Shown here: positions 40,814 through 55,607 of the stretch, in pieces | Position numbering within the stretch: position 1 is the stretch's first letter | Layout of the letters: every line of letters starts with the position of its first letter | Assembly: GCA_030649165.1 (NCBI GenBank) | Contig: JAUSGG010000034.1 | Location: 4,546 to 68,545 of the forward strand | DNA from: Armatimonadota bacterium | Lineage (GTDB): Bacteria; Armatimonadota; UBA5829; JAUSEB01 | DNA: 64,000 nt | Direction of reading: 5' to 3' | Made by a program: the position numbers and the translations under genes | The notes under the pieces: model-generated | What the model was told of the DNA's origin: nothing | Seen by the model: only the letters and a program-made list of their open reading frames with translations | The model's database searches: none

Positions 40814-43800
40814 ATGCGCAAGCGTTTCACGTCGCGTTTCCTTAGGCCATTCGCAGCCGCGATTACAAGCATAAGCCTTGTCTTCCTGGCCGGCGTTCCG
40901 CGCGCGGGCGCGATAGACGTCGCAGGCGGACTGACAATTCCGGAAGCTCCCGGCGCGGCCAGGGGCGGAATGGGGAGTGACGCCGCTCGACTTAACGGGC
41001 GGATTCTCAAGGACCTGAACAACAGCCAGGCGTGGCGGGCGCTCAAGGCGCAGATGGGCCGCGGCTGGTCCGCGCGTTGGAACACCGTTACTGGCGCGCC
41101 ACACATGGCCACCGGCAGGGCTGCCGCATTGCCGGGATTCGGCAAACTGAGCCGCGAAAACGTCGAGTCCGCCTGTCTCGACTTCGTCGATCGTCACTCC
41201 GACCTGCTGAGAGTCAAGCCAGGGCAGTTACGATCAGCGTCGGCTGTTAAGGGCGGCGGGCGGTGGTACGTTGATTTCCAACAGACGCACAACGGAATTC
41301 CTGTCATCGGCGGCCGGGTCCACATGTCGTTTACGAAGGACGATCACCTGATCGCCTTCGGCTCCGACGTGTTCCCGGACGTTGCGGTGGACACAAATCC
41401 GCGGATCGACGCGGCGCGAGCGCTCGATATCGTTCAGGCCGACCTGCCGGAGACTCGGGACGCACGGTTCAGTCCTCCACAACTCAGCATTCTTCCTCTT
41501 CGCAAAGAAGCCGATTACGACTATATCCTGTGTTGGAGCATCGACGCAGCACAGCCCCGCGCGCACAAGAGTTGGAGATACCTGGTTGACGCCGGAACGG
41601 GCGCGATCCTGGCGAAATGGGACACCATTCGGCACGCCACTGCGTCGGGGACCGTCCAGGGAGCGTACGTTCCGGAGTTCCCGGACGATCCGCCAGCGGT
41701 GTCGGCCTTACCGCACAATCAGGTCCAGGCGCAGGGACCGGAGACGGCCATCCAGACCTGGAGCCTGGATTTCGACCCGGTTTGGACCATGCAGGGACAG
41801 TGGGCGTACGGCGTTCCCACGGGATCGGGCGGCGGCCAGCACGGGCTTGCCGATCCTGCCGCCGGCTACACCGGCTCCAAGGTTTTGGGCGTCAATTTGA
41901 ACGGCGATTACTACTCCACGGTCGGAGGCCCGTGGTGGCTCACCACCGATGCGTTAGACTGCGTAGGCAGAACCAGTGTCTGGCTCAAATTCCGGCGATG
42001 GTTGAACACGGACTATCGACCGGCGGCATCCGCGACCGTTGAAGTTTCCAACAACGGAACGACATGGACTCCTGTCTGGAGCAACGCAGGCTCCACGATC
42101 ATCGATTCCAACTGGACTCTGTGCAGATACGATATCAGCTCCGTCGCGGCAAATATGCCGAACGTATACTTGCGCTGGGGTTACCAGGTGGAGGCCGGGA
42201 CGTGGATGTACTCCGGCTGGAATATCGATGACGTAGCGCTGGTTTCCTACAGCGGGGGAATCTACACGAGCGTGACCGGAACGGACGGCGCGTATACGGT
42301 CGAGTTGCCGTGGAATCCTAGCTCGATCTACTCCGAATTGAAGGGACCTTACTGCGAGATGAACTATGCGGGCGGGTCGCCGGACGCTCAGTTCACCCAG
42401 GCCGGCGTTATGCCCGGAAATCAGGTCGACTGGACGTGGGACGCGGGTCTGTATAACCAAATCGACGAGTCCAGCGTTTTCCGGCACGTCAACTATATTC
42501 ACGACTACTATAAGCAGATCGACCCCGGCTTCTCCGGCATGGACTACCAAGTTCCTACAACGGTCTCCATTCCGGGCCTCAACGATGCCTACTGGGACGG
42601 GACCGGCCTGGCGTTTGGGGCCGGCGACGGCATAACGTACGCGGATTTCGGCCTTTCCTCGGAAATGATCTACCATGAGTATACGCATGGGGTGACGGAC
42701 AAGATTTATCAGGGCGTCCAGATGCCGAACTATCCGGAATTCGGGGCGTTGCAGGAAGGTTTGAGCGACTACTTTGGCTGCGCGCTCAGCCTGAGTCAGA
42801 GTCCGGAGTTCGGAGACGGGCTGCTGCTGTACGATCCCAATGGAATACGCACGCTTGACAATACGTTCCGGCGCGAAACGGACTGGACCGGCGAAGCGCA
42901 CGCGGACAGCCAGATGTTCAGCGGCGGTCTTTGGGAAGCCAGGCAGAGCGTGGGCGCGGGCATCATGGACCTCTTGACACATTTCACCAGGTACGCGCAT
43001 CCCGCCGGCTATGAGGATTATGTGCTGGACCTCGTGATCGAAGACGACACGCGGTACGGTGACGACGATATTACCAACGGTTGTCCGCACGGCCAGGCCA
43101 TCTATACCGCATTCGGGAACCACGGCATCGGAGGGTTACAGTATCTGGGGCCGAGTATAGTTATTGGCGACGCGGGCGGGATAGTCGAGAACGGAAGACT
43201 CGAACCGGGTGAGGCTGCCAACCTTTCGCTCACGCTGACGAACGGGTGGGCCGACGCCACCAACGTGACCGCCACGCTGAGCTGCGCCGATCCACTGATA
43301 ACGATGTGGAAATCGGGGTCGGTCTTCGGAAACATCGGTCAGGGCGCGACTCTCGATAATCTGGCGGATCCGTTTGTCGTCGAGCTTTCGGCTTCCTGTC
43401 CGGAGACTCGGACTATCTATTTTACGCTCGATATAACCGCGAACGGCTTCTACGCTTACACGCGGACGTGCAAGTTCTACTACGCGGTCGCTGTCGGGCA
43501 GCTTGCCTGCGACGACGGCGGGGCGGAGGGGTACGCCGCCCCAGGGCCGGGCGAATCCTACGCCGTGAAGTTCACGCCGGACAGCTATCCCTGCTATCTC
43601 AGGAAAGTACGGTTGTTTCCCGGCGGCCCATCCTCGTTCGACCTCACTTTCCGGGACGATGACGGTCCGAGCGGCGCCCCCGGCACGGTGATACGCCAGA
43701 TTCCCATCGATGTCCCAATCGGCATGGACTGGTTCGACATCGATATTTCCTCGCAGTATCTGCAGATAGACAGCGGGAGCATCTACGTAGGCTGGACAGC

Positions 43801-45778
43801 CGCTGTGATCGGCTACTCAAACGGATACGATCTGGACCCTCCAGACTGGGGAAGAATGTGGCGCTATGACTCCGCGGCGCAACAGTGGTACAGCGCGGCC
43901 GGCGGCAATCTGATGCTGCGGCTGCGTTATTCGGATATTCCGCTGCTGAAGATCGAGCCTCCGTACGACTACCAGTTGAGCTACGCCGGCGAGCCGGTCT
44001 CGGATTGTTTCATCGCCAGCGGAGGAGTTCCTCCCTATCACGATTGGCAGGCAGCAGGATTGCCTATCGGGTTAACGTTAAACAGCGAAACAGGCTGCTT
44101 ATCGGGAATGCCGATTGCCCCCGGCAGTTACCAGGCGCTCGTTCAGGTCACGGACAGTGACGTGACGCCTCAGACGGCGATGCATTACATTACTTTTGAC
44201 ATCGTCAACTGCAGTACGCCGGCGCCGTCCGGTCCCAACCCCGGCGATAATGCGGTCGGCGTTCCGCTCAATGTGGGACTGGAATGGAATTACAGTTGGT
44301 ATATCGAGGATTTTGAGATGGGTGTTGCTCAGAATTGGAGCGAGAACACCGAGGCATACTGGGAAGTATACGGCAGCGGGTACAGAGCAATGGCGGGCAT
44401 TGCGGGGAGGCAAATGCAGGCCACGTACACGGGCGAAAGCTGGACCGATGTTGCGGTCCAGGCCACGATGCGGCGATCGGCGGATTCGGGAAGCCCCGCG
44501 GGAGTATTCCTCCGGGCAACGAACGACTTCAACACGGCGTCCCCCATCGGCTCAGCTTATATTCTGCTCATTGACGGCGCGGGCCAATATCGCGTCGCGA
44601 AATACGTATCCGGATCGCTGATTGCTCTGCAGAACTGGACGTATTCGCAATATCTGAACCAGGGCACATCTCCAAACATAGTGATTCTGAGCGCGGCGGG
44701 GACGGACCTGGACGTCTACGTCAATAACCATCTCATCTGGTCAGGCAGCGACAGCAGCATTACGGCGGGGGGACACATCGGGCTTTACGGCTACAGCGGA
44801 TCTTCATCCACGGGCCACTACTACGACAACGTGATTGCGCGGCAACCGATTCCGGACGGCGCGAGTCAGCCCGTATCCTCCACTGAGATAACTCTGTACG
44901 ACGTGTTCTTTGGTCTCTCTCCCGAGTCGCTTGCCCCGGTAGCATTCGACGTGACGCAAGGACCGTTTTACCCGACCTCCCTGCAGGCGGGGAAGACTTA
45001 CTACTGGAGAGTCACGGCGAAGTCTTTCTGCGGCGAATCCCCCGGCCCGTGCTGGTCCTTCACCACCCAGGCTTCGACAGCGGATGCCAAGCTGGCGCCG
45101 AACGGAACGCCAGTCGACATCCACGGCGCGATAGTATCGGGCGCGTTTGCTGACTTCTTCTACATCGAGTCCGACAATCGCGCATCGGGCATCAGGGTGC
45201 AGAAAACGACGCACGGCTTGGTTCTGGGTGACAGAGCGGATGTTGTCGGCACGGCGGAGACGAATTCGGACGGCGAGAAGTACGTCGAGGCGACCTCGAC
45301 AGCCAGGCGGGGAGCCGGGAGCGTGGCGCCGACCGGTTTGAGATGCGCGGGCTTCGGCGGGTGCGACTTTGCCTACAATCCCGCCACGGGGGCGGGCCAA
45401 CAGGGGGTAAAAGCGTACATCGGCGGATCGCCGACGATGGGTCTCGTGCCCGGCCTGAATAACATCGGCCTGCTCGTGCGATTGTTCGGCGAGGTCAGCG
45501 AATCAGGCAGGGGCTGGTTCTACTTCGACGATGGAAGCCAGTTGGGTGACGGCACGGGCTATGTCGGTGTGTACGTCGCGCCGACCGGCCTGGTCGCGCC
45601 AAAGCGCGGCGACTACGTCTCCGTCACCGGCATTTCGAGCTGCCAGTTCTATGATAGTAATCTGGTGAGTTTGCTGCTTCCGCGCGCGCAAAGCGACATC
45701 GTGATCGTCGTTCCCGCCCAGACCGGCCTTGGGTTTTCGGCAGAGCCGGGACCGAGTCCGCGTGAAGGCGCGCGCTAA
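40814..45778 (+). CDS. Large secreted M4/M36-type zinc metallopeptidase, multidomain
   Basis: Signal peptide; FTP/PepSY-like propeptide; HEYTH (42674-42688), GALQEGLSDYF, HADSQ; Ig-like and jelly-roll domains; tandem beta-rich C-terminal module. Confidence 0.88.
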   Translation: MRKRFTSRFLRPFAAAITSISLVFLAGVPRAGAIDVAGGLTIPEAPGAARGGMGSDAARLNGRILKDLNNSQAWRALKAQMGRGWSARWNTVTGAPHMATGRAAALPGFGKLSRENVESACLDFVDRHSDLLRVKPGQLRSASAVKGGGRWYVDFQQTHNGIPVIGGRVHMSFTKDDHLIAFGSDVFPDVAVDTNPRIDAARALDIVQADLPETRDARFSPPQLSILPLRKEADYDYILCWSIDAAQPRAHKSWRYLVDAGTGAILAKWDTIRHATASGTVQGAYVPEFPDDPPAVSALPHNQVQAQGPETAIQTWSLDFDPVWTMQGQWAYGVPTGSGGGQHGLADPAAGYTGSKVLGVNLNGDYYSTVGGPWWLTTDALDCVGRTSVWLKFRRWLNTDYRPAASATVEVSNNGTTWTPVWSNAGSTIIDSNWTLCRYDISSVAANMPNVYLRWGYQVEAGTWMYSGWNIDDVALVSYSGGIYTSVTGTDGAYTVELPWNPSSIYSELKGPYCEMNYAGGSPDAQFTQAGVMPGNQVDWTWDAGLYNQIDESSVFRHVNYIHDYYKQIDPGFSGMDYQVPTTVSIPGLNDAYWDGTGLAFGAGDGITYADFGLSSEMIYHEYTHGVTDKIYQGVQMPNYPEFGALQEGLSDYFGCALSLSQSPEFGDGLLLYDPNGIRTLDNTFRRETDWTGEAHADSQMFSGGLWEARQSVGAGIMDLLTHFTRYAHPAGYEDYVLDLVIEDDTRYGDDDITNGCPHGQAIYTAFGNHGIGGLQYLGPSIVIGDAGGIVENGRLEPGEAANLSLTLTNGWADATNVTATLSCADPLITMWKSGSVFGNIGQGATLDNLADPFVVELSASCPETRTIYFTLDITANGFYAYTRTCKFYYAVAVGQLACDDGGAEGYAAPGPGESYAVKFTPDSYPCYLRKVRLFPGGPSSFDLTFRDDDGPSGAPGTVIRQIPIDVPIGMDWFDIDISSQYLQIDSGSIYVGWTAAVIGYSNGYDLDPPDWGRMWRYDSAAQQWYSAAGGNLMLRLRYSDIPLLKIEPPYDYQLSYAGEPVSDCFIASGGVPPYHDWQAAGLPIGLTLNSETGCLSGMPIAPGSYQALVQVTDSDVTPQTAMHYITFDIVNCSTPAPSGPNPGDNAVGVPLNVGLEWNYSWYIEDFEMGVAQNWSENTEAYWEVYGSGYRAMAGIAGRQMQATYTGESWTDVAVQATMRRSADSGSPAGVFLRATNDFNTASPIGSAYILLIDGAGQYRVAKYVSGSLIALQNWTYSQYLNQGTSPNIVILSAAGTDLDVYVNNHLIWSGSDSSITAGGHIGLYGYSGSSSTGHYYDNVIARQPIPDGASQPVSSTEITLYDVFFGLSPESLAPVAFDVTQGPFYPTSLQAGKTYYWRVTAKSFCGESPGPCWSFTTQASTADAKLAPNGTPVDIHGAIVSGAFADFFYIESDNRASGIRVQKTTHGLVLGDRADVVGTAETNSDGEKYVEATSTARRGAGSVAPTGLRCAGFGGCDFAYNPATGAGQQGVKAYIGGSPTMGLVPGLNNIGLLVRLFGEVSESGRGWFYFDDGSQLGDGTGYVGVYVAPTGLVAPKRGDYVSVTGISSCQFYDSNLVSLLLPRAQSDIVIVVPAQTGLGFSAEPGPSPREGAR

Positions 45779-46929: not shown

Positions 46930-49584
46930 TCAAGAGCCAACAGCGTACCGAATGCCCGGCAAGGCGTTGCCGGCGCTGTCGCAGAGCCTGGCTGAGATTC
47001 CCCAGCCGTTAGTCCCCTGCGTGACCTTGATGAGCAGACAGTTCCAGTCTCTGTGGAGGGTCACAGGAATCCTGTCCTGATCGCGAGTCCACGAGCGATA
47101 GACGTCGTTCAGCCAGACCATCTGGCTGTTATGGTAGACTTTCACACCGTCGTTGCTGCCTATCCGCAGTTCGGCGGTCTGATCGGCGGGAGAGTAGATG
47201 TAGGCGTTCACATAGCCGAGGCCTTCCGAGGGAGCGCCATAGGGGCCGGCCAGGTCTACGTATCCATCCGGTTCGGCTGTCACGGGCGACCACTGGTATC
47301 TTCCGCTAACCATTCCGATCTTCGGCCAGGTGGTCGCCTCGCCGCCGAGGTAGTCGGCGGCCATGCGGGTGGTTCTGTCGAGATGACCGTAGAATCCGTT
47401 CGCCAGCCAGTCGAATATGAACGGAGCGGGCTGGTCCGTTGTCGTCGACTGACTCAACCCGTCTTCATAGTTCCAATTGCCACATACGTCCACGGCTACG
47501 ATCTTATAGACGTAGTTCGTGTTTGGCGTCAGGTTGGTCAGAGTGACCGCGTGGTCCTCCACCAGTTGCGGGGTGGCGACAATGGTGTTCGTGGTAGTCG
47601 TTCCATAGTCGATCCGGGTAGTTGTCGGTTCGCTGGTTTTCCACGTGACGACCATCCGGCTGCCGGTCACTGCCTCAACCTGCACGTCGCTGATGATCGG
47701 AGGCGTGGTGTCCCCAGTGTCGGCAGCGACGTTCACTCCCGGCAGAGCTTTTCCGGCCGAATCGCAGACTTTGGCGACGAGCGCCCAGCCGCCGGTGTTC
47801 TGCGATACTTTGAAGATCAGCCGGTTCCAGCCCGCGATCAGATGGACGGGCATCTTATCCTGGTCGGGCGTGACGGTTCTGCCAACGTCCTTGGTCCAGA
47901 TGTTCACGCCATTCGCCCAGACTTTGACACCATCGTTGCTTCCGAGCCACAACTGGGCGTCCTGTTCGGACGGAGAATAGACGTACGCGCAGGCGTAAGC
48001 GGCGCAATAAGTGCGGGTTGATCCGTAGACGGACAGGAAGCTCAGAATATCCGTGGAACTCTGCTTAAACGTCCACGTCTTCGCCCCCTGGACTTGCCCG
48101 GCGCGCGGCGCCGCGTATTCCTCGCCGCCGAGGTAGTCCTGCGACAGTCTGGTGGCGCTGCTGATATTGGAGTAATAGCCGTTCAACAGCCAGGTCCTTA
48201 TGTAGCCGGCGGTTGTCGCGCTTCCCGCGGTCGTGACAAAGGTGGACGAAGGCGCGCTCGACGTGTTTCCATCGGCATCCCGCGCGTCCACAACGAAATG
48301 GTACGTCGTGCCGGCGGAGAGGCCGGTCAACGTGATAGAATGCTGCGTCCGCAGAGTAGTGTCGCTCGACGAAGATCCCAAGGCCGTGGTCGCGCCATAG
48401 CGCACGGTGGCCGTGGTCAACTCATCAGTCGTGCAGTTGATCGTGGCAGAACTGGTTGTAATGCCCGTCACAGTGACGATAGTGATCGTGGGCGCCCCGC
48501 TTGGGGGATTTGTGGAAGTAGTAACGCCCGGAATGGGATTGCCCGCTGAGTCGCAGACCCTCGTCGCAAGCGCCCAATTGCTCGTGTTTTGCGCTACTTT
48601 GAGAAGCAGCCGGTTCCAGCCGGGGGCAAGATGGGCAGAGACCTTATCCTGATCGGGGGTGCAGCCCCTCAGGACATCGTTGGTCCAGATGTTCGCGCCG
48701 TTCAGCCAGACCTTTACGCCATCGTTACTTCCGAGCCACACCTGCGCGTTGAGGTCAGCCGGTGAGTAAACGTAGGTGAAGGCGTAAACGGCGCAGTATT
48801 GCGACGTGGACCCATATACGGTAAGGAAATCGAGGTGGTCCGCTGAGTTCTGCTTCAGCGTCCACGTTTTCCCCGCCTGGGACTGCCCCGCGCGCGGAGC
48901 GGCGCTCGTCTCACCGCCAAGGTAGTCGGTCGAGAGCCTGGTTGTCCTGTCGGTGTTTGAATAATAGCCGTTCAGGAGCCACTCTCGCACGAACGCCATC
49001 GGTGGGGGATCGCCCGGGGTGATAGTGTACGATCCCTGCGCCTTTTTCGTAGCGTCGAACCTCGACGTCGCCATCAGCGCAAACGAGGCCGGAACGGAAG
49101 CGGCTGTCGGGATCGCGGCAACCAGGAAGCACTTATAGGAGGCTCCCGCGGCGACAGAGGGTGTGGAGGTTACGACGGTCGTCTCCGTCGATTGACGAAC
49201 ACCGTCGCCGTTGGCGTCGGCGACCATTCTCGGCGACCACGAGGTATCGCCTGTGACGGCAAGTCCGAAAGTATCGGACCCGTTGCCGGCGTTTTTGACG
49301 GCTACAGCGACGCAGCCATCAGACCCCGCTTGCGCGGTGACGTTTCCGGTCGCGGGCGTTAGCTGTACGCCCGCCACCTGACCTACCGTTACTGTAACGG
49401 TGTTCGAAGTGGACGCAGGCATGCGGGTTCCTGCGCTGTCGTTGTAGTTCGCGATGCTTGAGGTCGAAATCTGCGCGCCTGAAGGGGTGAGGGCGTAGGC
49501 GCTGACCGCGAGACCGCAGCAGGCGAATAGGAGGCCTACCGCGGATGACAATGCTCGCGCCAAGTGAAACTGTTTCTGGTTCAT
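46930..49584 (-). CDS. Secreted protein with three PA14/galactose-binding-like repeats and FN3-like spacers
   Basis: Signal peptide; three ~160-aa repeats WL.NG.Y..DYLGGE..GSNDGVKV..W....KV.Q.T..W....CDSAG; DUF11-like N-terminus. Confidence 0.8.
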   Translation of the reverse strand: MNQKQFHLARALSSAVGLLFACCGLAVSAYALTPSGAQISTSSIANYNDSAGTRMPASTSNTVTVTVGQVAGVQLTPATGNVTAQAGSDGCVAVAVKNAGNGSDTFGLAVTGDTSWSPRMVADANGDGVRQSTETTVVTSTPSVAAGASYKCFLVAAIPTAASVPASFALMATSRFDATKKAQGSYTITPGDPPPMAFVREWLLNGYYSNTDRTTRLSTDYLGGETSAAPRAGQSQAGKTWTLKQNSADHLDFLTVYGSTSQYCAVYAFTYVYSPADLNAQVWLGSNDGVKVWLNGANIWTNDVLRGCTPDQDKVSAHLAPGWNRLLLKVAQNTSNWALATRVCDSAGNPIPGVTTSTNPPSGAPTITIVTVTGITTSSATINCTTDELTTATVRYGATTALGSSSSDTTLRTQHSITLTGLSAGTTYHFVVDARDADGNTSSAPSSTFVTTAGSATTAGYIRTWLLNGYYSNISSATRLSQDYLGGEEYAAPRAGQVQGAKTWTFKQSSTDILSFLSVYGSTRTYCAAYACAYVYSPSEQDAQLWLGSNDGVKVWANGVNIWTKDVGRTVTPDQDKMPVHLIAGWNRLIFKVSQNTGGWALVAKVCDSAGKALPGVNVAADTGDTTPPIISDVQVEAVTGSRMVVTWKTSEPTTTRIDYGTTTTNTIVATPQLVEDHAVTLTNLTPNTNYVYKIVAVDVCGNWNYEDGLSQSTTTDQPAPFIFDWLANGFYGHLDRTTRMAADYLGGEATTWPKIGMVSGRYQWSPVTAEPDGYVDLAGPYGAPSEGLGYVNAYIYSPADQTAELRIGSNDGVKVYHNSQMVWLNDVYRSWTRDQDRIPVTLHRDWNCLLIKVTQGTNGWGISARLCDSAGNALPGIRYAVGS

Positions 49585-54119: not shown

Positions 54120-54148
54120 TTGAACCCCTTCCGGCAAAGCGCTAGAAT
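54120..54148 (+). promoter_or_regulatory. sigma70-type promoter of the radA operon
   Basis: TTGAAC, 17-bp spacer, TAGAAT. Confidence 0.65.
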
Positions 54149-54230
54149 TGGCTTGGAAGAAAAAGGGCGGGGACGGGTGCGTCCCGCAGCCCTTTTTGCG
54201 CATAGAAGGAAGGATGGCGCGGCCGGCCAA

Positions 54231-55607
54231 ATGCGGAAAACAGTCACCAAATTCGTCTGTCAGAACTGCGGATACGAGTCTCCCAAATGGCTTGGCAGGT
54301 GCCCCGATTGCGATCAGTGGGCGTCGTTGGTCGAGGAAACAACCACGGCGCGTACGGAGCGCGGCGCCCGCGACGCCGCAACCTCTTATCATCCTCCGAT
54401 GGCGATAACGAGCGTAAGGTCCGGGGCCGATAAGCGAACCGGCACGCAGATACAGGAGTTCGACCGCGTTCTGGGCGGAGGGGTGGTCGAGGGATCTCTG
54501 GTCCTTATCGGCGGCGACCCCGGAATCGGCAAGTCCACCCTGCTTACCCAGGTCGCGCAGAATCTCAGCCGGGATTCCGGCAAGACCCTCTACGTCTCCG
54601 GCGAGGAGTCGGTCCAGCAGATCAAAATGCGCGCCGACCGGCTGGGACCCGTCAACGACGACCTTCTTCTGGCGACGGAGACGGACATCCTCGCCGTCCA
54701 GCATTACGTGGACAGCCTCAAGCCCGCCTTTGTGATAGTGGATTCGATCCAGGTGATGTACCACCCGGAGTTCGTGTCGGCGCCCGGCACAGTGAGCCAG
54801 GTCCGCAATTGCACGGCGCTGCTCGCCCGGATGGCCAAGACATCGGGGGTTCCCGTCTTCATAGTCGGTCACGTGACCAAAGAGGGCGCCCTGGCCGGGC
54901 CGAGAGTGCTGGAGCACATGGTCGATACGGTGCTGTATTTTGAAGGGGACCGGCATCAGACGTATCGCATCTTGCGAGCGGTGAAGAACAGGTTCGGATC
55001 GACCGACGAGCTGGGCATTTTCGAGATGCGCGAGGAAGGACTGATCGAAGTGCCGAATCCGTCGGAGGTTTTCCTCTCGGAGCGGCCTCAGCATGGGGCC
55101 GGGTCCGTAGTGACTTCAACCATCGAGGGGGCGCGCCCGATTCTGGTGGAGGTGCAGGCGCTTGTGGCGCCGAGCCATTTCGCGGGGCCGCGCAGGATGG
55201 CGACCGGCGTGGATCACAACCGGACTTTGATGATTCTTGCGGTGCTCGAAAAGCGCGTCGGGCTAAACCTGGCTAACCAGGACGTATACGTGAACGTGGC
55301 GGGCGGCATGCGAGTTGCGGAGCCGGCGGTCGATCTGGCAATCGCGGTCGCGGTGGCCTCCAACTTCAAGGAGATGGCGGTGGATCCGACGACCGTTTTG
55401 CTCGGCGAGATCGGCCTCGCAGGCGAAATCCGCGCGGTCGGCCAGACCGAGAAGCGTCTGCGCGAAGCGGCGCGCCTCGGGTTTACGAAGGCGATCGTGC
55501 CAACCAGATCGGCGGGCAAGGTCGCCAAGTCCACGGGTCTCAAACCGATCGGAGTCGATACGCTGCGAGACGCGATTTGGCAGACCCTGGAGGACAGCGG
55601 GCAATGA
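54231..55607 (+). CDS. radA: DNA repair protein RadA/Sms
   Basis: C4 zinc finger CQNCG..KWLGRCPDC, GDPGIGKST, KNRFG. Confidence 0.97.
   Translation: MRKTVTKFVCQNCGYESPKWLGRCPDCDQWASLVEETTTARTERGARDAATSYHPPMAITSVRSGADKRTGTQIQEFDRVLGGGVVEGSLVLIGGDPGIGKSTLLTQVAQNLSRDSGKTLYVSGEESVQQIKMRADRLGPVNDDLLLATETDILAVQHYVDSLKPAFVIVDSIQVMYHPEFVSAPGTVSQVRNCTALLARMAKTSGVPVFIVGHVTKEGALAGPRVLEHMVDTVLYFEGDRHQTYRILRAVKNRFGSTDELGIFEMREEGLIEVPNPSEVFLSERPQHGAGSVVTSTIEGARPILVEVQALVAPSHFAGPRRMATGVDHNRTLMILAVLEKRVGLNLANQDVYVNVAGGMRVAEPAVDLAIAVAVASNFKEMAVDPTTVLLGEIGLAGEIRAVGQTEKRLREAARLGFTKAIVPTRSAGKVAKSTGLKPIGVDTLRDAIWQTLEDSGQ

Follow-up and report, generated by a model that had tools for sequence, protein, structure and literature searches.

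The 64,000-nucleotide stretch of Armatimonadota DNA analysed here (contig JAUSGG010000034.1; referred to as the window) encodes a secreted zinc metallopeptidase that carries, close to its C-terminus, a folded module matching no existing Pfam or NCBIfam model. By sequence comparison this module is a real, bounded domain family of about 205 amino acids (aa), and structure prediction resolves it into two fused oligonucleotide/oligosaccharide-binding (OB) folds. We propose, with a probability of about 50%, that it is a non-covalent envelope-retention (binding) domain of one Armatimonadota lineage, which would keep secreted proteins at the surface of the cells that make them. The fold and the family would be new to the role of surface-anchoring module, which is itself a known one.

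A family hidden Markov model (HMM) places the module at aa 1421-1630 of the peptidase (nt 45074-45703; aa 1426-1635 of the stop-to-stop open reading frame, ORF), with a match at E 2e-77. The initial annotation, read from the letters of the window, had set the boundaries correctly to within a few codons, and all of the motifs that it quoted are present in the translation of 45068-45778: STADAK (aa 1421-1426), FFYIESDNRASGIRV (1448-1462), GLNNIGLLVR (1547-1556), FYFDDGS (1569-1575), GDYVSVTGISS (1599-1609) and LLPRAQSDI (1621-1629). Its statement that the module terminates the peptidase holds in part, as the module sits near the end but is followed by a 24-aa tail ending PSPREGAR. No second copy was found in the window by BLAST or with the family HMM. 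Beyond the window, a word-indexed search of 5.8 billion sequences with the 236-aa tail matched 34 proteins, down to E 1e-53, a signal that as sequence similarity is far beyond chance. An exhaustive profile search over 1.84 billion cluster representatives then returned 5,500 clusters (at 50% identity) at E<=1e-3, 4,485 at E<=1e-10 and 2,242 at E<=1e-30; the profile has 287 positions including some flanking columns, so that the weakest matches may partly reflect neighbouring domains, while the 1e-30 set should not. Neither Pfam (2025 copy) nor NCBIfam 20.0 has a model that matches the module at E<=10, characterised catalytic domains included, and a lenient Pfam scan of 35 members returned sub-threshold OB families only (RMI2, tRNA_anti-codon). 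In the papers searched on protein sorting in Armatimonadota, on choice-of-anchor proteins and on UBA5829, the module is not described.

The module and the tail that follows it were divided into four parts on the plus strand:

45077..45319, +: OB fold 1 (aa 1422-1502), an N-terminal helix and then five strands; from AlphaFold2, Foldseek and conservation
45320..45457, +: Gly/Asn-rich insert between the OB folds (aa 1503-1548); from AlphaFold2 and conservation
45458..45712, +: OB fold 2 (aa 1549-1633); from AlphaFold2, profile-profile comparison and conservation
45713..45775, +: C-terminal extension (aa 1634-1654), a variable linker and then P-S-P-R-E-G-A-R; AlphaFold2 pLDDT only 67-84

Modelled with AlphaFold2 on the family alignment, the whole module comes out as all-beta, two sets of five strands with a three-stranded insert in between (predicted local distance difference test, pLDDT, 93.4; predicted template modelling score, pTM, 0.90), and OB fold 1 modelled alone reaches a pLDDT of 96.5. 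The top 50 Foldseek matches of the whole module in the PDB are OB-fold proteins without exception, including SSB, YgiW, RMI, Stn1/Ten1, RPA and the anticodon-binding domains of aminoacyl-tRNA synthetases. OB fold 1 is best matched by E. coli YgiW (1nnx; E 3.7e-4, TMq 0.68, rmsd 2.8 A over 81 columns), and its remaining top matches are likewise OB folds (TMq 0.52-0.69, probability 1.00). A fold search among viral structures (BFVD) gave generic OB proteins only. The predicted structure and its matches therefore show the five-stranded closed barrel and the topology that define the OB-fold superfamily. The two halves are related to each other in profile-profile comparison (hhalign probability 85.6%, E 5.6e-6, 56 columns), although plain BLAST between them did not reach significance (E 0.17). 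These models bear out the two OB-like folds that had been suspected from the letters, and on them the module is best described as a tandem duplication of one OB type plus a conserved insert. The high pTM suggests that OB fold 1, insert and OB fold 2 would pack as one body.

Each part has its own conserved motifs. OB fold 1 shows FYIE..DR..GIRV, G1479 and T-N-x-D-G-E-R/K-Y, and the Lys of its helix is kept in 80% of modules. The insert has three short predicted strands (E101-104, E109-111 and E115-118; pLDDT 83-98) and the motifs P-L-G, L-G-G-G-D and T-G-A-G-Q-x-G-V, in which G-G is 98-99%, Q 91% and G 97% conserved. OB fold 2 opens with (G-L-)N-N-I-G-L-L, continues with F-Y-x-D-D-G-S and V-T-G-I-S-S-C, and closes with R-x-Q-x-D-I; NNIGL is invariant in the alignment used for the family (A1) and 90-99% conserved over 260 modules. 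The module is acidic, with a median isoelectric point (pI) of 5.1 and a median net charge of -4 across 259 modules (pI 4.9 for the copy in the window), which argues against nucleic-acid binding, and we have set that function aside. Two subtypes coexist within single genomes. Type A, to which the copy in the window belongs, combines a long D-G-S-G...G-x-G-V loop with a 'vnvl' end; in type B the loop is short ('VKC') and the end reads 'l.rllrvr'.

Where the module sits in its carriers is the second line of evidence. Among the top 150 proteins, its end lies <=12 aa from the protein end in 103 of 126 single-copy cases, and among top matches of >=450 aa it lies <=30 aa from the C-terminus in 78 of 91, where uniform placement would give 4.9%. 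We then scored 251 retrieved proteins with the family HMM and counted the 134 that were single-copy, started with Met and had >=450 aa. The module is C-terminal in 112 of these (84%), at the very end in 93 and before a tail of 13-40 aa in 19; most modules close with the conserved R-x-Q-x-D-I 2-12 residues before the stop. The other 22 comprise 10 with the module right after the signal peptide, six of them FGE-sulfatase proteins, and 12 with an internal module that precedes CarboxypepD_reg-like or other domains. Another 21 proteins hold 2-3 copies, tandem or dispersed, and near-standalone modules exist among the homologues. A signal peptide was scored in 81 of 118 homologues starting with Met (crude heuristic), and many of the negatives look like miscalled starts or fragments.

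The passengers have little in common. Non-enzymatic ones include choice-of-anchor Q (19 of 50 full-length members), choice-of-anchor B/LVIVD, NosD/beta-helix, CHB_HEX_C, HAF-repeat, FG-GAP, RCC1, immunoglobulin (Ig)-like and leucine-rich repeat proteins, and propellers are represented by SBBP, NHL, PD40 and WD40. Enzymatic passengers are peptidases of families M4/M36, M6, S8, C1 and C39, FGE-sulfatase and alkaline phosphatase. The 'choice-of-anchor' families of NCBIfam are named for their alternative C-terminal anchors. The statement in the initial annotation that such tails end many unrelated secreted Armatimonadota proteins is thus supported by thousands of clusters, the strong C-terminal bias, the signal peptides and, for all named sources but one contig, the taxonomic labels described below.

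When one genome per species (GTDB) was scanned for NNIGLL, 259 genomic matches were confirmed, and the best 80 of them come from 29 metagenome-assembled genomes (MAGs) with <=6 loci per MAG. Of these 80, 58 are titled Armatimonadota or Armatimonadetes, while the MAGs of the other 22 bear no label beyond 'uncultured bacterium' or 'bacterium'. In a second search, all source-given names among the best 120 proteins are Armatimonadota save one, a 220-aa protein (P0242) on a 2.9-kb contig labelled 'Candidatus Marsarchaeota archaeon', and there faulty binning of so short a contig probably explains the archaeal label. Paralogues are numerous: counting fetched loci only, at least 8 module genes lie on the complete chromosome OY970325.1 and at least 12 in MAG CAWGNL. 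Some are clustered, with 4-5 genes in 12 kb at locus L009 (1910-12242), several of which encode small proteins of signal peptide, FN3 domain and module, and three genes each at L001 (296-7851) and L007 (157-6792).

Signal peptides, terminal bias, many paralogues, unrelated passengers and lineage restriction are together the pattern of a localisation module. From them we infer that the module binds a ligand and that surface retention results. In the mechanism we propose, the N-terminal signal peptide would send the carrier out through Sec, and the two fused YgiW-like OB folds with their Gly/Asn-rich insert would form a single rigid unit that binds a conserved component of the producer's own envelope. 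The enzyme or adhesin joined to this unit (in the present case an M4/M36 metallopeptidase) would stay at the cell surface instead of diffusing off, and tandem copies would raise avidity. The most likely ligand would be a glycan, such as an exopolysaccharide (EPS)- or lipopolysaccharide-type polymer, or an epitope of an outer-membrane protein, positively charged or metal-bridged. By analogy with related folds, binding of a cationic or metal-bridged envelope glycan or outer-membrane protein by an acidic tandem OB is plausible. N-terminal, internal and multi-copy placement, the size of about 205 aa and a phage-borne copy (below) favour a retained binding module over a cleaved terminal tag, a logic that by analogy resembles S-layer homology (SLH), LysM or cell-wall-binding domains rather than the T9SS C-terminal domain, LPXTG or PEP-CTERM.

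Two known systems illustrate this logic. SLH domains consist of helical repeats of about 55 aa whose ligand is a pyruvylated secondary cell-wall polymer made with CsaB. Like the module, they are repeated non-covalent envelope-binding units found at either end of unrelated exported proteins, with many paralogues; unlike it, they are helical, of an unrelated fold and of a different taxonomic range. No PF00395 (SLH) match was found in module proteins and the predicted fold is all-beta OB, and we therefore reject membership in that family. The BOF (YgiW-YdeI-SipA; 1nnx, PF04076) proteins are closer in structure, sharing an N-terminal helix with a conserved A-K, the subsequent pattern V..G.V.....FY..D..G.I.V and an extracytoplasmic location. 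They are predicted to bind cationic ligands and have been shown to interact with outer-membrane porins (PMC6370654). The former prediction fits the acidic character of the module. BOF proteins, however, are associated with stress responses and consist of one free-standing domain of about 110-130 aa, whereas the module is a fused pair with an insert on large passengers. The YgiW sequence reaches only E 0.32 against the module profile, no other PDB sequence is significant, and PF04076 has no match at E<=5 among 35 module members; membership in BOF/YgiW was rejected on this lack of a significant sequence match and on the different architecture.

A copy of the module in a viral contig is also consistent, by analogy, with binding to the host envelope. 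The sole IMG/VR match (IMGVR_UViG_3300050581_000179, a 33.5-kb contig; locus L081, 5877-8555) encodes an 892-aa protein with a signal peptide, an NlpC/P60 domain, Ig/FN3 repeats and a full module at aa 682-888 (HMM E 1e-43). Its NlpC/P60 domain matches PHROG minor tail protein and tail-lysin families, and the gene lies between tail-fibre genes on both sides, with integrase, recombinase and ParB genes upstream. A second viral scan with the phage module as query returned the same contig only. In phage peptidoglycan hydrolases, the C-terminal position is the usual one for the cell-wall-binding domain, and the module takes that place here, at the extreme C-terminus behind NlpC/P60 and Ig spacers, as such domains do in phage lysins and tail lysins. 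SH3b, LysM, CW_7, SLH and the other known domains of this type have different folds, and this protein is a single example, unusually long and with a signal peptide.

Several points weigh against an envelope-retention role. The phage copy is one locus, and the protein, given its signal peptide, may be a moron or a lysin that is secreted, and not part of the virion. No recurrent partner gene was found near module genes when the flanking ORFs of the best 80 loci were clustered all against all. Modules are 42% identical within genomes and 39% between genomes, so that paralogues are deeply diverged and hardly look co-adapted to a ligand peculiar to their genome. In each OB fold a conserved acidic motif (IE..DR or DDGS) comes after strand 2 and should lie on the usual OB ligand face, a placement predicted from strand order rather than from measured geometry. 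OB folds also serve oligomerisation and substrate binding. Finally, the known members all come from uncultured MAGs, and the taxonomic labels cover the best-scoring matches, so that the range may be wider.

The alternative that survives best is that the module acts like a carbohydrate-binding module (CBM), tethering its carrier to a polymer outside the cell (a polysaccharide from plants, fungi or bacteria, the EPS of a biofilm or extracellular DNA) and not to the producer's own envelope; we consider it unlikely but not negligible. OB folds are classic oligosaccharide and oligonucleotide binders, all of the top structural matches are OB folds, and CBMs, too, typically come in tandem. PEP-CTERM proteins, which the exosortase literature usually connects with the making of EPS, are encoded in the same genomes. 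Partners of the glycoside hydrolase type are rare, however (the few GH-related families among those listed are PF02638 and PF09136), and the combination of proteases, a phosphatase, FGE domains, propellers and FN3-only proteins makes a shared substrate implausible. The acidity of the module is unfavourable for DNA, and nearly all labels are Armatimonadota, whereas CBMs for common polymers spread widely. A carbohydrate-binding module in the GH-attached sense was rejected outright, as the partners are mostly proteases, beta-helices, propellers, FGE domains and a phosphatase.

A second alternative is a secretion or sorting signal analogous to the C-terminal domain (CTD) of the type IX secretion system (T9SS), read by dedicated outer-membrane machinery and then removed or covalently processed. 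We regard this as distinctly improbable, even though it would account well for the C-terminal bias and for the conserved close shortly before the stop. The T9SS CTD of Bacteroidota is likewise a lineage-restricted C-terminal domain on diverse secreted hydrolases, M36 peptidases included, and the passengers of the module resemble T9SS or PEP-CTERM cargo; the NCBIfam models nearest to the carrier peptidase are named 'T9SS-dependent M36' and 'myxosortase-dependent M36'. The T9SS CTD, however, is cleaved off, always stands at the C-terminus and consists of one beta-sandwich of about 80-100 aa, whereas the module is a tandem OB of about 205 aa that can also follow the N-terminal signal peptide, lie inside the protein or be present 2-3 times. 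No NCBIfam sorting-signal model matches the module: CTD models of the TIGR04183/TIGR04131 type hit neither the tail nor, among the 25 listed of 33 NCBIfam families, any of 50 full-length members. The best 80 loci likewise have no conserved neighbour that could encode a processing enzyme, and a phage-borne copy is hard to reconcile with a host sorting tag. Membership in the T9SS CTD family was rejected on size and fold, on the 22 of 134 N-terminal or internal modules and on the 21 multi-copy proteins. Of the analogies drawn in the initial annotation, the one to SLH domains therefore fits better, while the one to the T9SS CTD is disfavoured by placement, fold and size.

A further point for such a signal is a subfamily with a conserved motif at the extreme C-terminus. 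Of 328 module proteins, 37 (about 1 in 9, the peptidase of the window included) extend 15-50 aa beyond the module, and in 32 of these 37 the extension ends in PR plus 1-12 residues, compared with 6.2% of 812 background ORFs. The extension is a variable linker followed by [N/S]-P-R or R-P-R-[D/E/K] and 1-12 polar or basic residues, without a hydrophobic stretch; carriers include P0001, P0002, P0004, P0010, P0059, P0060, P0076, P0079, P0081, P0082 and P0108. Judged from its sequence, this x-P-R extension could be a processing or docking motif, and under the sorting-signal hypothesis it could be the processing site. A bolder reading is that the module, joined in one subfamily by the x-P-R tail, is the recognition element of a dedicated, so far undescribed surface-attachment system of anaerobic and groundwater Armatimonadota. 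Such a system could involve a specific receptor or enzyme, for example an outer-membrane docking protein, a PEP-CTERM-anchored partner or a PR-specific ligase or protease. It would amount to a new way of sorting or anchoring proteins based on a tandem OB fold; we hold it to be improbable.

PEP-CTERM signals deserve separate comparison, since a motif search found classic PEP-CTERM proteins encoded in the same module-bearing MAGs. They occupy the same slot on similar passengers (HAF repeats, choice-of-anchor, NHL/SBBP), and HAF-repeat proteins end in either the module or PEP-CTERM, which indicates that the module occupies an 'anchor slot' filled elsewhere by sorting or anchoring signals. PEP-CTERM, however, is a motif of about 25 aa with a transmembrane helix and a basic tail, whereas the module is a folded domain of 205 aa. 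The tail in the window, IVVPAQTGLGFSAEPGPSPREGAR, has neither a PEP motif nor a hydrophobic helix and was rejected as a PEP-CTERM signal. Directly downstream of seven module genes (0-330 nt past the stop) lies a PEP-CTERM gene. Three of these belong to one family of about 235 aa with 36-54% identity (L017 6623-7339, L028 6544-7236 and L035 6625-7329) and stand behind non-orthologous module genes in three MAGs; the others are at L059 6625-7542, L031 8112-9221, L036 8214-8966 and L041 8146-8574. The downstream genes could encode partners of the module or could reflect mere clustering of surface-protein genes, and we treat them as a lead and not as a rule. The peptidase gene of the window has no PEP-CTERM gene beside it.

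The weakest alternative, a self-association or scaffold role (oligomerisation, an S-layer-like protein coat or a folding and stability cap with no separate ligand), appears very unlikely, since, despite the OB oligomers known from RPA, CST, RMI and AB5 toxins (several among the Foldseek matches), the small FN3-module proteins clustered at L009 and the near-standalone modules, no result here points to self-association, passenger diversity and position fit targeting equally well or better, and the single-chain AlphaFold2 model (pTM 0.90) is a compact monomer.

If the envelope-retention proposal is true, a large share of the surface and secreted proteins of this little-known, uncultured lineage, a common one in groundwater, sediments and anaerobic digesters, could be recognised with one HMM. 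About 5,500 clusters that have no Pfam or NCBIfam annotation over their last 200 residues would gain a model. An envelope component used for docking by the cells and at least one phage would come into view as well, and the tandem OB would join the short list of bacterial surface-anchoring folds. The module might additionally offer a specific affinity handle to label or capture these uncultured cells.

The carrier itself has the following features, all on the plus strand:

40814..45778, +: carrier ORF, a secreted zinc metallopeptidase of 1654 aa
40814..40912, +: Sec-type signal peptide, aa 1-33, MRKRFTSRFLRPFAAAITSISLVFLAGVPRAGA|IDV, read from the translation
41270..41620, +: FTP and PepSY propeptide motifs, aa 153-269 (PF07504 E 2.3e-5; PF03413 E 0.013, below the curated cutoff)
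42488..42802, +: thermolysin/fungalysin-type (M4/M36) catalytic region (PF01447 E 7.4e-7; PF02128 E 3.2e-4)
44021..44194, +: He_PIG Ig-like domain, aa 1070-1127, one of several spacers preceding the module (PF05345 E 8.3e-9)

The signal peptide has a basic n-region, a hydrophobic core and an AGA cleavage-like site, and the protein (P0054) was scored positive by the same crude heuristic as its homologues. HEYTH is found at aa 621-625 (nt 42674-42688), with the Glu motif GALQEGLSDYF downstream. Directly before the module, 44198-45070 (aa ~1129-1419) appears to encode an FN3-like domain interrupted by a large beta-rich insert; it begins PAPSGPNPGDNAVGVPLNVGLEW and picks up again at ...GKTYYWRVTAKSFCGESPGPCWSFTT, and the region has no Pfam match. 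A YYW.V...W.F.T element immediately before the module also occurs in several homologues. A 198-aa ORF on the opposite strand (44804..45400) was dismissed because the plus-strand frame has homologues at E 1e-53. A promoter and terminator scan stayed at chance level, and no RNA runs containing the carrier gene were found; the DNA of the window is present in groundwater metagenome runs.

The neighbourhood of the peptidase gene is of a housekeeping kind, with a lar cluster, GH20, OGG, RadA, a phosphoglycerate mutase and a sensor phosphatase. The lar (nickel-pincer cofactor) cluster at 35383-38185 shares 58-64% identity and synteny with locus L012 of the Armatimonadota MAG JBDKSP, and RadA (54120-55607) is 71% identical to its counterpart at L058 of the same MAG. 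These two similarities put the window within the Armatimonadota. On the minus strand at 46930-49584, an 884-aa secreted neighbour has three repeats of about 165 aa with FN3 domains between them. The repeats are 44-63% identical to each other (E 1e-47 to 1e-83) and have no Pfam match at E<=1e-4, and the protein carries neither the OB module nor a recognisable anchor. Finally, 6 kb upstream of the peptidase gene (33025-35064, plus strand), a 679-aa protein combines a TMEM260-like protein O-mannosyltransferase domain with tetratricopeptide (TPR) repeats and could bear on the glycosylation of envelope or secreted proteins.

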